A DNA stretch of 64,000 bases from Podarcis pityusensis (lineage: Eukaryota). Under the pieces are notes generated by a model, which searched no databases, was not told the origin of the DNA, and saw only the letters and a program-made list of their open reading frames with translations. The position numbers were made by a program, and so were the translations under genes. This document shows, piece by piece, positions 11,129-33,136 of the stretch; positions within the stretch are counted from its first letter, which is position 1, and each line of letters begins with the position of its first letter. Location: assembly GCA_964106645.2 (NCBI GenBank), contig OZ067042.1; one strand, 5' to 3'.

Positions 11129-14100
11129 GTAGGTGGCTATGTAGGTGGAATTTTTTTCAGTAGTAGAGCTTGTAGACAAGTACTGCTGTAATCTGCTGAA
11201 GTACACCCACACACGGAAGACAAGCACTACCAATCCAGTAATTCTAGCGGATGTTTTGGTTTTGTCGCCAACCCATTTGGATACAATTGGCACCCATTCA
11301 ACTGAGGTGTGTCAGTAGAGCTCTGAGGGGGGGCGGGGAAATCTGGCCGTGTGTCTTCCATCAGGGCACCAGCTTTTGTGCAGTTTACAAAAAAAGAAAA
11401 TAATAAAACAAGAAAGAGCTCCCTCTCTATTATCACCCTCATCTCCTTCCCTTACCCCCCAAATTAGTGCCTTGTTGCATACCTGTGTGAGAGTATAGTG
11501 GAAAGTGGAAGAATGACTTACCCTAGCTTCAGAGAAGGACTGGCAAAGACTTGTTGGAGGTCTTGCTCTCAAGTGGGGCTAAATAAATTATTCCACCCTC
11601 TACTTTTTTATATTATTGTACTGTTGTCTGTCATGGTCACAATTTTTTCATAAATGCTTTCAATTCATGATGTCTTTACCAAACATCTTGGTGCTAGCTA
11701 TTGGTGAACTATTCCTGTGCAATTCTCATTTGCCACACTTTTCTTCCATTGAGTTATTCTAACTGTGGCTGCTTGGTTTCAGAGATCAGTGTCTCGATTT
11801 AACAAGAGAGAGATGTGCGTGGAAGCTGCCTTTTGCATGCATGACAAACCCTGCCTTTGTGCTGGCAATGCAGATGCATTGTGAATGAGCATTGGACACT
11901 AAAATGTTCATTCAAACCCTGATGAAGTGGCTGGCTTCATCTTTAGATGTGAAGGGGATGCAAACCTGCATAAATCTACCAATTAATACGCATGACTGTT
12001 TGGTCACAGCTATGGCTGAATTGCAGCCAAAATCCCATAGGCAGGAAATAAGCATAGCATGTACATTCAGAAGGAAGTAATAGCTCACTGATAAGTATTT
12101 CCAAGTTTACAGATTGTACCTAATAGAAATTGGTAAAATCTCTAAAGCTTCCCAGACATAATTAATTAATCACTGAAAGGCACCAATCATGTAAGGGAAA
12201 ATTTAAATAGAGGCCAGATGTCAACAGTATCAAGACATTGTTGCAAGATCACAAGTGGAAGGGGGGTAATCAATTTATTTCATTTAAAAACATTGCTCCT
12301 CTGCTTTTGCCACAGATACTTTTGAGCTGTTTCACAGAATTAGAATAATATACAAGATGACATAAAAGCTGAAATACACCCACACAGCCCCAACATATTA
12401 GACCCTACCAAACAGATGTTTAAGCCAAGTCTTGCAAGCACTATGGAAAAGTTAATACAAGTAGGCTTTGACAGACCTCCTGTACAGCTGGTTCTACAAA
12501 GTCCTATAATTGAGAAGGGTGTGCTTTATATCTGGTAGGATGACCAGATCCTGTAGCTTTAAGGGTTATATTGTAGAGGTTTCACCTTAACATGAGAAGC
12601 TGGACCTCTGAAATTCCTTCTTCATACAGGTATAATAGGTACAGGATACCTGACCTCCTTTGCCACTGGTCATTGTATTGTTCCTGCCAATCTTACCTCT
12701 CTTATTGCAGACAATCTGATATGCATTAGCAATTTTGTTGAATCTGCTGTCTTGATTATTTCTTTAGACTGCAGTCCTGTGCACACTTTCCTGGGAGTAA
12801 GCTCCATAGAACTCAGTGAGTCTTAGATCTAAGTGTGCAGGTGTGGGTGTGCGGGTATAGTTTTGTTTTGTTTTGCAAAGGCAGGAATTTGTTCTTCTGT
12901 AAATTAGGTAACCTATGTTCTTATGCAGCTGCACATATTTGCATGCAGAAGCCTGTAGCCTTACATGGAGAGGAGAGGCACATTAATATGCTACCAAGCA
13001 ACATTTTATTAATTCCATTTATTGAGAGAAAACAAAGACAGCATCTTAGTTTAGTATTTTGGCTCCTAAAGATGAAGTGTTGTTTAAAACTTATAATCAA
13101 CACCTGTGGTATCAAAATCCTCACATTATCCTTCCCTAGTTCTTATTTCTTCACATGCATAAGAGAGTATCTGTATACCCTCTTTTGAGGTGATTTCCCT
13201 TACAAACCAGGAGCTGTCGCCGACCATTTTTGCCACCACCAAATTCATAGCCCACATTTTGTGCCATGAACGGAGTGGAATGAAGCTGTCAGACCACAGG
13301 GCCGATTCATTCCTGGTACTCTGCAGTCTGATTCCTCTTGGGAGTTCCTGGGGGAGTAGCGCTGGGATGTGCCGTAATGCTTGAAAGATTTCCAGGAAAC
13401 ATTTCCTCTGCTTTAGTGACTGTGTCACTGACAGATGGGCATGTACTGTGTCTTAAATGTTTAGGACCTTTACATTTGTCCTCAGCGTGTGAGCACTGAA
13501 AATCCCTTTCTTCTCAAGCTAAAAAGGACAGGATAAGAAAGCTGATACGTCCCCAGCAGCTTGAGGCTCTATCCCCACCTGACCTTCAGGGGGAACCTTA
13601 CTACAGTAGGAGAACTCAATAGCTTTGGATCACACAAGCACATGATCTACAAGGCTTTTACTTTTTTCTGCATAACACTCAGAATTTCTGGAGTCTGTCC
13701 TCTTCCACGTGCTTTCTTTGGACAACAGTCTTTCTACAGATATAGAAAGGAAATGGGGACTGCACTGTATGTAGTGACTAGATGACCCTCTGTGTCCTTT
13801 TCATCTTGTATTTATGTCTCACACACATGATAGTGTCTGCCATACCTAATGAAGTTTTGGAGGCCTCTGTGCACATATCTTAATTTTTTCACAACTTCAA
13901 GCAAAATTAAATATCGGAAGCTAAGTCCTTGGTTCCAACTGTCCAGTCAAAATTTAAGTATTGAATTTAGGGTTCATATTTTTATTTAAGCAGCATGTCA
14001 ACCAGGATAAGACTTTTGTATACTTGAACGATATTTTTAAAAAAACACTCCCTGAAGACAGATTAAAAGTTGTTATACAAAAACATGACTTTTCATTTTA

Positions 14101-18363: not shown

Positions 18364-18412
18364 GGCAAAAAGAAGAAAAGGAAAAGGGACAAACAGCCAG
18401 GAGAGACCAATG
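18364..18412 (+). CDS. TCF7L2: TCF7L2 exon 12 (49 nt), basic tail/NLS GKKKKRKRDKQPGETN
   Basis: ttcattcag|GGC ... AATG|gtaagt. Confidence 0.98.
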
Positions 18413-18943: not shown

Positions 18944-18994
18944 AACACAGCGAATGTTTCCTAAATCCTTGCCTTTCACTTCCTCCGATTACAG
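18944..18994 (+). CDS. TCF7L2: TCF7L2 alternative exon 13 (51 nt), EHSECFLNPCLSLPPIT
   Basis: ttttttttcag|AACAC ... ACAG|gtgcta; known cassette exon peptide. Confidence 0.96.
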
Positions 18995-20115: not shown

Positions 20116-20188
20116 ACCTGAGCGCTCCTAAGAAATGCCGAGCGCGCTTTGGCCTTGATCAACAGAATAACTGGTGCGGCCCCTGCAG
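20116..20188 (+). CDS. TCF7L2: TCF7L2 alternative exon 14 (73 nt), C-clamp [24 protein letters not shown]
   Basis: ttcag|ACCTG ... TGCAG|gtgtgt; CRARF motif. Confidence 0.98.
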
Positions 20189-20520
20189 GTGTGTATAGTC
20201 TCCCCACCCCCACCCCGACTTGCTATGGCTGGTTTTGCAGCTGGTTTATTTGGTACTTCCCCCTTCCCCTCCCTCTCCTCCTGCTTTGTTGCTTTGTAGC
20301 TCTGTGTTGTGATCTAGAAGACACAAGGGAGTGGGACGCTGCCGTGAATGATCATCTCTTTCTGTTTAAAGGATTTCGCTCTCTTCCGCCGCCCCCCCCC
20401 CCCATTTTTGTTTCCTCCACCCACCTGCACACTGCCGCTAGCTGGAAAATTCCCACTGTAAGACAGCATCAGCCTAGGCTTGCACACACAATCCCACCCT
20501 CCTCTCTGGAAAGTTCCATA

Positions 20521-20826: not shown

Positions 20827-20899
20827 ATGCAAATACTCCAAAGAAGTGTCGGGCATTGTTCGGGCTTGACCGACAGAGTTTATGGTGCAAACCGTGCAG
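20827..20899 (+). CDS. TCF7L2: TCF7L2 alternative exon 15 (73 nt), C-clamp variant [24 protein letters not shown]
   Basis: gctaacag|ATGCA ... TGCAG|gtatac; CRALF motif, paralogous to exon 14. Confidence 0.97.
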
Positions 20900-21692
20900 G
20901 TATACTACCCATTAGGCCTTTGGGAACTAAAAGCATTCTGTCATCTTAGTATTAAATGTATGGTTTATTTTTAACCCCTCCCCTTCCACTTCTCGCCTTC
21001 CTTGCTTCTACGACATTGATTGCTAATCAATTTTTGATCTTCAGAATTCTTTGCTAATTCAATGCAAATTTCTTTTCCTTCTTGACCAATAACCTCTCTT
21101 TTGGTAGTAGAACTGGGAGTTGGTACACACATCCCCAAGATGCAGAAACTAACATTTTCTTGGTCAAACAAGTGTGTTAAGTGGACATCCGTACAAGTGT
21201 CTATGTGTATGCTCTCAGTCTCCAAAGGATATTTGCAGCACTGGTATTTTCACTGTGATGAAAGAGGATACAAATTAGAATTTCTGCTTGGATCTAAGTT
21301 AATAATATATTGGGAGTCTATATAACAAATTCTTCTGTATATTTTTGAATCAATCTTGTGTGCTTATGAAAGCTCAACTAAAATTCATATTAGGCACATT
21401 CATAAGGTGCCTGGCAAAAAAAATTGCAGTAGTCCATTTGTCGCTGGCTTGTTAAGTTGACATTTGCTTGGCAAGTTGTTTTGGGATTTTAATCAAATTA
21501 CAGGACATTGTTCTGCATTGTTCAGCTTAATGGCACCGAAGACCAAAACATTTGAAACAACCCATGTTCTACTGCAGGATAAATTCAGTATGCACTTGTT
21601 TCTTGGTGAAGGGAAGCAAACTATCTCTTGTTGCATTCTTTTTTCCCCTTAATATGGTTAAATTTGTTATTTCTCTGTTCCGATCCAAGCAG

Positions 21693-21717
21693 TCTTTGAA
21701 TTTGGAATATTATGATG
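21693..21717 (+). CDS. TCF7L2: TCF7L2 alternative microexon 16 (25 nt, stop-containing)
   Basis: ccaagcag|TCTTTGAATTTGGAATATTATGATG|gtaggt; matches my recollection of the 25-nt mammalian exon 16 (13b). Confidence 0.88.
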
Positions 21718-25650: not shown

Positions 25651-26682
25651 ATAAAATAAAGTGCAAATGTATCATTAAAGGTGCAGTGACAGAGCATCAG
25701 TGAAGTGAAATGGAGATTGTGACATGAAACTAATGCTGGGTGGAATGCCCTCTGAAGTGGACATAGTCCACTCACTTGGATTTGAAAGTGTTAACTCTCA
25801 GGTTACAGATGACTGGGTGATAGTGTCACTTTACTGGACTTTTATAATTACACCAGTGGAAAATTGTCCAGCTGACCTTTATAATTCTACATATGGGTCA
25901 GCTTGGAATCAATCACCCTGACACCTGATGGGGCCGTTGGTCAGTTTCAACATAGGGTCAACTGGCCACATACGATACTTGCCTTTCAGCCTCAGCTGAG
26001 AGTCTCATGCTAACAGACGTGAACTTCAGTTGAGAAAGGTGTCTTGTATTACTCCAACATGAGTGCAAAAAAGAAAAAGATCAAAACGTTGTGTTTGCTG
26101 TGACCGGTTTTTAGAATCCGTTTGCCCTGTGGGAATCTGCTCCAGAGGACGCATTCATTGTACGCCTAATATTTTTGTTCTGCCACTAGACATGTCTTCT
26201 GAATATTAGGCAGTAGGTGCAATGCATAGATGTCATTCTTTATGTAAGTTGGATAAGCCAGGGTGCATAGTGGCCTGATTTAATAGCATTGATAACTTTT
26301 GTGAAATTCTTAACCGTTTTCTGATTGTTTCTCTTTACAATGATACCTGTTGTTGCTTTGTTTGTGCACTCCACGCCTAACCAAGATTTAAGTTTTCTTT
26401 TGAAGTTCTTTTAATTTCTATAAATTAAAGTAGAAGCCAAACAATTCCTTCTCCCACCCCACCCTTTATGAAATAAAATAAAATAAATGAATGTGTGATA
26501 ATCCACAACCTGCAGGTTATACAACCAGTTATTCTTGTTAATTTGGACGGTATTTCTGTTCATCTTCCTTTTCCTTCATTTCCCACTTTTATTCTTCCTG
26601 TTACTCTTTCCTCTTTTTTGTGTCTGTGTGACGTTGATTTTTTTTGTTTGTTTTTGTTTTCACACGGTGTGGTTCTAAACAG

Positions 26683-26727
26683 AAACAAGCAGGAGTGGTA
26701 GATCCTCGGCTACAGTTGGTCGCAAAG
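26683..26727 (+). other. TCF7L2: Candidate additional 45-nt cassette exon of TCF7L2
   Basis: 152-nt AG-free pyrimidine-rich tract, then aaacag|A ... AAAG|gtgggg; open phase-1 frame ETSRSGRSSATVGRK. Predicted from sequence only. Confidence 0.5.
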
Positions 26728-27135
26728 GTGGGGTTTCTTCCAAGGCAGGCAGGGAGATATTCCAGAAGCGAGACTCCAGAGTCAGTCTTACAGAATGCTT
26801 GGTGCCAACTGAGAGGAAGTATCTGCCATATTTTGGTTTGTAGGGGAACTAATGTAAACAGCTAAGAATGAATTCACTTGGTGCTAAAAGAACACAAAAC
26901 CGATTTTAAAATAATAATAAAAATTGCCTAAATGGGACAAAGAGCAAATTCCGCTAGTTAGCAGAAAGACGGATTCCTTAATCGTTGTCCAGAGGTAGCC
27001 AGCACCATTATAATAATTGGGTATAGCTAAACAGAGCCCGGCATAGTTGGTTGATGGCTCTTTGTTTTAGGGTTATTATTTTCCCCTCCAAATAGCGTCT
27101 TTGCCCTTCACAGATTGCTCTCTCCCTATTTCTAG

Positions 27136-27574
27136 GAGAAAAAAAAAGTGCGTTCGCTACATACAAGGTGAAGGCAGCTGCATCAGCCCACCCTCTTCAG
27201 ATGGAAGCCTACTAGACTCTCCACCGTCTTCTCCCAACATGCTAGCCTCCCCCACAAGAGACTCAAAACCACAGACTGAACAAACCCAACCTCTCTCGCT
27301 CACATTGAAACCCGACCCACTCTCACACCTCTCGATGATGCCGCCCCCGCCGTCCTCCATAGCCCTGACTGAAAGCTCCACTAGCAAATCCAGCGGTCTG
27401 CCTGCTAGTAATTGTCAGAACGGGGCACTGGACCATCAGTCTGCCACTTTACCGCAGTCCGCGCCGTCCTCCTCTTCGCTAGCGCAACCCTCGACATCCT
27501 CCTTGCATTCCCATAATTCTTTGGCTGGGACACAGCCTCAGCCACTGTCACTCGTCACCAAGTCTTTAGAATAG
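27136..27574 (+). CDS. TCF7L2: TCF7L2 terminal exon 17 coding part (E-tail RRKKKCVRYIQGEG...PLSLVTKSLE*; M-frame GEKKSAFATYKVKAAASAHPLQMEAY* stops at 27215)
   Basis: tttctag|GAG; (A)9 at 27139-27147; CtBP-type motifs PLSLT (27290-27304) and PLSLV (27542-27556); TAG at 27572-27574. Confidence 0.98.
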
Positions 27575-32905: not shown

Positions 32906-33136
32906 CAGTGGTACCTCAGGTTAAGAACTTAATTCATTCCGGAGGTCCGTTCTTAACCTGAAACTGTTCTTAACCTGAGGTACCACTTTAGCTAAAGGGG
33001 CCTCCCGCTGCTGCCGCTTGATTTCTGTTTTCATCCTGAAGCAAAGTTCTTAACCCGAGGTACTATTTCTGGGTTAGCGGAGTCTGTAACCTGAAGCATC
33101 TGTAACCTGAAGCGTCTGTAACCCGAGGTACCACTG
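32906..33136. mobile_element. Tc1/mariner (pogo/Tigger-like) MITE
   Basis: TIRs cagtggtacctc.ggtta / taacccgaggtaccactg with TA on both sides. Second copy at 49051. Confidence 0.92.

Follow-up and report, generated by a model that had tools for sequence, protein, structure and literature searches.

In this analysis we describe a candidate 45-nt exon, here called exon X, in the last intron of TCF7L2 from Podarcis pityusensis. Our best explanation, to which we give a probability of roughly 0.4, is that X is a real minor cassette exon, likely to be mostly skipped because a predicted hairpin would bury its acceptor. A masked exon of this kind explains both the odd anatomy of the stretch and its absence from annotation. 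The hairpin, which comes from folding predictions, is new relative to the sequence-only reading of this DNA, which missed it. In favour of a minor exon we count the joint filter on zone, donor and frame, the rank of the donor, the precedent of a long zone before exon 2, the hairpin controls and the single copy of the sequence. Against regular use we count its absence from all 145 informative isoforms among those listed, an acceptor that scores under nine true ones, filters that were chosen post hoc, and the observation that pairing of the AG is common at true acceptors.

The candidate exon and its predicted products

The window, meaning the whole 64-kb stretch of DNA analysed here (contig positions 49476001-49540000), carries the 3' part of TCF7L2 on its + strand. 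We identify the gene as TCF7L2 because the protein encoded by exon 17 with the E-tail is identical to that of Podarcis muralis RefSeq in 144 of 145 residues; in the same protein search Lacerta agilis shares 141 residues and a rattlesnake 134. With exons numbered after PMC2847248, the window contains, all on the + strand, exon 12 with the basic tail (18364-18412, 49 nt), exon 13 (18944-18994, 51 nt), exon 14 with CRARF (20116-20188, 73 nt), exon 15 with CRALF (20827-20899, 73 nt), exon 16 (21693-21717, 25 nt) and exon 17, whose coding part runs to the E-tail stop (27136-27574). The choice among exons 13 to 17 sets whether the C-clamp and the CtBP sites are retained, and hence which Wnt targets are activated, and at the Axin2 and Cdx1 promoters the E forms are stronger activators than the M and S classes, as described in the available text of PMC2847248.

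Exon X occupies 26683-26727 on the + strand, and 28 of its 45 bases are purines. It is preceded by the candidate acceptor CAG (26680-26682), whose proximal pyrimidine tract is weak, and is closed by the candidate donor AAG/GTGGGG (26725-26733, GT at 26728), so that the intron from X to exon 17 would measure 408 nt. These positions had been proposed by the sequence-only reading together with an AG-free zone at 26529-26680 and an in-frame TAG at 26699-26701, and all of them hold. Its predictions for the products were likewise borne out by in-silico splicing. In the orders 12-X-17 and 12-13-X-17 the frame is open and 15 residues are added ahead of the M tail. With exon 14 or 15 upstream, the product ends in RNKQEW at the TAG and has neither a complete C-clamp nor a PLSL motif. 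When X follows exon 16, the protein has already stopped upstream. Transcripts carrying a stop less than about 50-55 nt upstream of the last junction escape decay, and escape is expected for 14-X and 15-X because their stop ends 26 nt before it.

The two splice sites are of very different quality when scored with a frequency matrix. At 4.9 the donor is equalled by 0.52% of the 11642 GTs on the sense strand of the gene and outscores 9 of 14 true TCF7L2 donors; no GT within 300 nt of the acceptor scores better, the next best reaching -0.1. The proximal acceptor, at -2.6, falls under all nine true acceptors scored (0.7 to 9.5, with two left out), and 24% of 13157 AGs reach its score. We also considered the downstream AGs at 26688, 26691, 26694 and 26700, which lie outside the stem described below or at its edge and would give exons of 38, 35, 32 and 26 nt; the peptides would contain the same 5-mers and are absent from the isoforms listed. 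Reading through X as a terminal exon, with a frame open to 26843, is equally unsupported among those isoforms. A transposon origin was rejected as well: in two genome searches, in which very common words were skipped, the only match of X was itself. As far as the search shows, X is apparently present in a single copy.

The AG-free zone and its pyrimidine tracts

The zone upstream of X (26529-26680, + strand) is 152 nt long and 74% pyrimidine (113/152). The + strand of the window has 4302 AG gaps, of which this is the sole N-free one of at least 150 nt. A gap reaching 152 nt arose in 1, 5 and 4 of 100 dinucleotide shuffles of the whole region, of 1000-nt blocks and of 400-nt blocks, respectively. 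For a broader background we added 200 kb on either side of the window, giving 464 kb (928 kb of strand). This set contains three zones of at least 150 nt on the + strand and five on the - strand, and six of the eight are at least 70% pyrimidine. One of the three + zones precedes a true exon, TCF7L2 exon 2, and two of the five - zones lie antisense inside TCF7L2. With eight such zones in 464 kb, length alone is weak evidence, modestly beyond chance. The zone before exon 2, which lies 174 kb upstream of the window, is 164 nt long, 81% pyrimidine and ends in AAG.

The combination of features is much rarer than the length. Among 160 AG-free zones of at least 60 nt and at least 70% pyrimidine on both strands of the 464 kb, two are followed by a YAG, a donor and a symmetric open frame, and the number stays at two of 160 with the looser donor cut-off of 2.9. 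When the set is restricted to the 24 zones of at least 100 nt, X alone passes. The exon-like anatomy is thus rare in the surrounding 464 kb, as counted with filters that were picked after X had been seen. The other zone that passes lies at window coordinate 109685 (contig near 49585685) and consists of 62 AG-free nucleotides before a 63-nt open, symmetric candidate.

Branch points commonly follow the motif yUnAy, and the zone contains matches to it. A candidate distant branch point, TTAAT (26538-26542), places its A at 26541, 141 nt before the end of the acceptor. It is followed by a CU-rich tract (26553-26618, 89% pyrimidine), and TCTT occurs five times in the zone, compared with about one expected per 152 nt of the last intron. 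A second candidate, TTGAT (26634-26638, A at 26637, position -45), stands directly before a U-rich tract with T at 20 of 23 positions (26638-26660), and a further branch-point-like motif, TTCAC, is found at -20. Since only 8 of the 16 bases from -20 to -5 are pyrimidines, the pyrimidine tracts sit upstream of the acceptor rather than next to it. This layout, with TTAAT at -141 and TTGAT at -45, fits a displaced branch point, of which it is no proof. Motif scans found no YGCY in the zone, and no RBFOX site in the zone or in the 200 nt downstream.

The sequence-only reading had taken long AG-exclusion zones to mark regulated exons. This is overstated. The zones studied in PMC1431707 were measured upstream of verified exons: 165 of at least 150 nt are reported among 67,334 verified human exons, and for those of at least 100 nt only an estimated one-half to one-fifth indicate a distant branch point. 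The part of that paper available to us contains no statement that a long zone predicts an exon.

A predicted hairpin over the acceptor

The U-rich tract is predicted to form a 19-bp stem with the acceptor itself. The 5' arm (26641-26659) and the 3' arm (26677-26695), which covers the acceptor CAG and runs 13 nt into X, are complementary over 19 bases without interruption, through 14 Watson-Crick and five G-U pairs. All five non-Watson-Crick pairs are G-U on the sense strand, and the three G of the U tract are in register with three C of the 3' arm. The stem is part of a longer, imperfect predicted hairpin (26610-26733) in which the donor is paired too. The segment 26610-26740 folds as one long hairpin of -41.3 kcal/mol (z -4.36), and none of 200 shuffles was as strong. 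The core, 26630-26705, has a z of -3.41 on the sense strand versus -0.81 on the antisense strand.

Because purine-rich sequence is an easy partner for a U tract, we also shuffled the halves and blocks separately. The fold energy was reached in 0 of 500 shuffles in three designs (halves, four blocks) and in 2 of 500 for the core, and a 19-bp stem arose in 0, 0, 3 and 1 of 500. Among 380 U-rich tracts, X included, three have a stem of at least 19 bp; of the other two, one is an (ATT)n repeat and one a pairing of purine with pyrimidine sequence that lies upstream of the start codon. Pairing of the AG by itself is common, as seven of eight true acceptors have the A of the AG predicted as paired at 0.5 or above, with windows that fold only at -12.7 to -29.4 kcal/mol. 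Along the gene, 5 of 312 windows fold more strongly than the X hairpin, and the wider 301-nt region folds unremarkably (z -0.87).

Two known kinds of structure were considered for the stem. An RNA thermosensor at a 3' splice site, of the yeast APE2 type cited in PMC9198270, is not supported, since the AG is predicted to be paired at 0.99 or above from 10 to 55 C and the stem would therefore stay shut. A search of Rfam gave five matches at E up to 5, all sub-threshold, the best over the stem scoring 21.9 bits where the gathering score is 95. Other inverted repeats exist nearby: a perfect one of 60 bp or more, its arms 59 nt apart, lies at contig near 49672042 (window coordinate 196042), and shorter ones of 19-22 bp, belonging to one family, recur in the 464 kb, one of them at window position 32907.

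These predictions suggest how a masked exon might work. The U2 snRNP would use the branch point at -141 or at -45, and with the nearer U tract and the AG locked in the stem, U2AF would lack access to them and X would be skipped by default. For X to be included, some protein would have to bind the U-rich or CU-rich tract and keep the stem open. Included after exon 12 or 13, X would lengthen the M-type tail by its 15 residues, and after exon 14 or 15 the product would be of the S type, with its C-clamp broken and the CtBP motifs missing, like the one made with exon 16.

Exon X among annotated isoforms

We searched for X in 446 proteins gathered by protein searches and cluster look-ups, with at most 15 members per cluster and 15 of the 27 members of the main Podarcis/Lacerta cluster. 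The sample includes 49 proteins without an anchor motif, 16 without exon 12, 11 with other tails and 225 of the E type, which were left out of the count since inclusion of X would mostly not yield an E-type protein. Of the remaining 145 M and S isoforms, 83 are non-mammalian, 30 squamate and 15 lacertid by a hand count from their source names. X is in none of the 75 M-tail and none of the 70 S-tail isoforms among those listed: in all 75 M isoforms exon 12 or 13 is joined straight to the M tail, and no S isoform has the ending predicted with X. Nor is there a 5-mer common to any of the three frames of X and the 446 proteins. The suggestion of the sequence-only reading that X may already exist in automated annotations thus found no support among these isoforms (0/145). 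Annotations do record rare variants, for example an acceptor in intron 14 of P. muralis, and a well-included X would therefore probably have appeared. The P. muralis accessions, arranged by falling length, seem to leave no free slot for X forms of 506, 495 or 489 residues, and one of 478 residues would be possible.

Wider searches were also negative. The 54-residue genomic frame of X gave 12 candidates among longer proteins and none at E up to 10, in a search where a match of 15 residues is too short to pass, and the 75-residue second frame had no match among 1.84 billion representatives. Exon 17, searched in metagenome contigs (28 of 64 parts), matched three loci at 44-47% identity, none of them a vertebrate orthologue by that identity. 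A run search with 26674-26733 (three words) returned 24 runs, 18 of them matching, with four organism labels and no RNA run on record among the holders listed; having fewer than five words, it is silent on expression or conservation. No published description of X or its peptides was found in the openly available literature searched.

The sequence-only reading had further suggested that X might be ancestral and lost in mammals. A point of interest here is zebrafish tcf7l2, for which the available text of PMC6908431 describes an alternative exon 15 that has two 5' ends, each of which introduces a premature stop. Among the isoforms listed, those of carp, Denticeps and sole have a longer 5' form of the exon-16 ending in SL or SSL. 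Fish isoforms compared with the frames of X gave best local scores of 21-27, where the self scores are 71-78, and show no similarity. As the fish isoforms listed end in short or long exon-16 endings, we rejected zebrafish exon 15 as an orthologue of X; it is likely the orthologue of exon 16, which leaves an ancestral origin unsupported. The hand count points the same way, with X absent from the 53 M and S isoforms listed for birds, turtles, crocodilians, amphibians and fish. In addition, the chordate gene model in the available part of PMC9303524 has a single named exon between XII' and XIV, and the part of its supplement on reptile-specific exons lists one turtle exon, as exon 4. Candidate X is probably limited to lizards or to a narrower group.

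Alternative explanations

It is quite possible that X is a silent look-alike, a low-complexity pyrimidine stretch with a chance AG and GT that is never measurably spliced. On this reading its hairpin would be either a side effect of a U-rich tract lying next to purine-rich sequence or the product of an inverted duplication that is small and old. The missing M and S isoforms and the weak proximal acceptor are what such a stretch would show, and AG-free zones of at least 150 nt are also found antisense to the gene, twice within it. Long zones unrelated to splicing are mentioned in the available text of PMC1431707, unused intronic splice sites can be silenced by RNA stems (PMC1935003, available part), and the apparent lack of a slot in the P. 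muralis accession series would fit as well. What such a look-alike leaves to coincidence is the meeting of zone, donor, frame and stem, of which the donor and the stem each occur at about 1% or more rarely, and the position of X in the one 9-kb part of the 200-kb gene where the known cassettes cluster. A further explanation, which we consider improbable, is that the hairpin itself works and the exon is incidental, the hairpin serving as a substrate for editing, as a microRNA-like precursor, or as a decoy to which splicing factors bind, tuning the use of exons 16 and 17 while X itself stays out of the mRNA. The fold is strand-specific, survives the block shuffles and has only G-U pairs as exceptions on the sense strand, all of which would suit a working RNA. 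However, the Rfam matches are sub-threshold, the 5' arm is nearly all U, and the good donor and open symmetric frame would be left unexplained.

The reading from which this analysis started, a fifth, well-used 3' cassette exon that was ancestral in vertebrates and lost in mammals, now appears highly improbable. The exon-like anatomy and the zebrafish alternative exon at about the position of X (PMC6908431, available text) could be taken to favour it, but the zebrafish exon, with its two 5' ends and premature stop, is more likely exon 16, no trace is found in the 53 isoforms listed from non-mammals other than squamates, and one exon only is named in this interval in the accessible part of PMC9303524. 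A bolder form of our own explanation is that X is a lizard-specific, structure-gated fifth 3' cassette exon near its birth, on which a tract-binding protein would act as a tissue switch from E-type to S-type and lengthened M-type proteins. We find this rather doubtful. It would have one event giving rise to both the splice site and its repressing hairpin, because the acceptor and the first bases of X are a near-inverted copy of the upstream pyrimidine tract. The mostly skipped minor exon with a masked acceptor remains the explanation that we prefer.

Relation to known systems

A close counterpart of X as a candidate minor exon is TCF7L2 exon 16, which corresponds to exon XIII of PMC9303524 and is a brain-enriched cassette giving the TCF4S isoforms (PMC2847248; both as described in the text available). 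Both are small and lie between the C-clamp exons and the last exon, and after exon 14 or 15 both lead to a stop just past WCxPC, with three of the four cysteines and no CtBP motifs. Exon 16, however, is 25 nt long, changes the frame and appears in annotations of fish through to mammals, whereas X has 45 nt, is in frame after exon 12 or 13 and occurs in no isoform among those listed. X also resembles the exons with distant branch points described in the available text of PMC1431707 (PTB exon 11, alpha-tropomyosin, alpha-actinin), which have a zone of at least 150 nt, a branch-point-like motif near its 5' end, a long CU-rich tract and a poor tract at the AG. Those exons are verified and some of their branch points are mapped, whereas X is a candidate with a second candidate branch point at -45.

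Control of exons by hairpins is known from TNNT2 exon 5, where MBNL1 competes with U2AF65, and from chicken beta-tropomyosin exon 6B, both covered in the available part of PMC9198270. As would be the case for X, a stem there stands against the access of splicing factors to the tract or exon. In X the stem is predicted, the tract would pair directly with the AG and the start of the exon, and the zone has no YGCY. The structure-silenced pseudoexons of ATM and CFTR are similar in that usable intronic sites stay unused inside RNA stems. They are activated by patient mutations and concern donors, whereas X is a wild-type sequence with the stronger predicted masking at its acceptor (PMC1935003, available part).

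If X is real, it offers one more route to the S form, the weaker one, and also a slightly lengthened M form. For Wnt biology this would be a modest gain, since the products of X fall in the known M and S classes. The mechanistic value would be greater, as X would be a compact case, open to testing, in which a pyrimidine tract masks its own acceptor, and might also show how an exon is born by inverted duplication. A silent X would be a good example of a convincing pseudo-exon.

Other splice variation at the locus

Several other variants were noticed in the same part of the gene. The acceptor within intron 14 (about 20441-20480) leads to a tail beginning SWKIPTVRQHQP in one P. muralis isoform. 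An eagle isoform ends in SQKPTVKQHQP, and this S-type variant may be common to lizards and birds; its support in annotation is greater than that of X. Exon 16 has a tandem acceptor, AAG CAG, at 21688-21692, and the endings SL and SSL are found in 26 and 10 of the 70 S isoforms listed. In exon 11, two identical donors at 11129 and 11141 are separated by 12 nt. Use of the second inserts VGGY ahead of the basic tail, and VGGY or a variant of it (VGSY, VRGY) occurs in isoforms annotated for squamates, turtles, birds and frogs, among others. When translated, the first part of intron 11 (11129-11290) is almost identical to the read-through tail of an Anolis model, and intron 11 is therefore well conserved across squamates.
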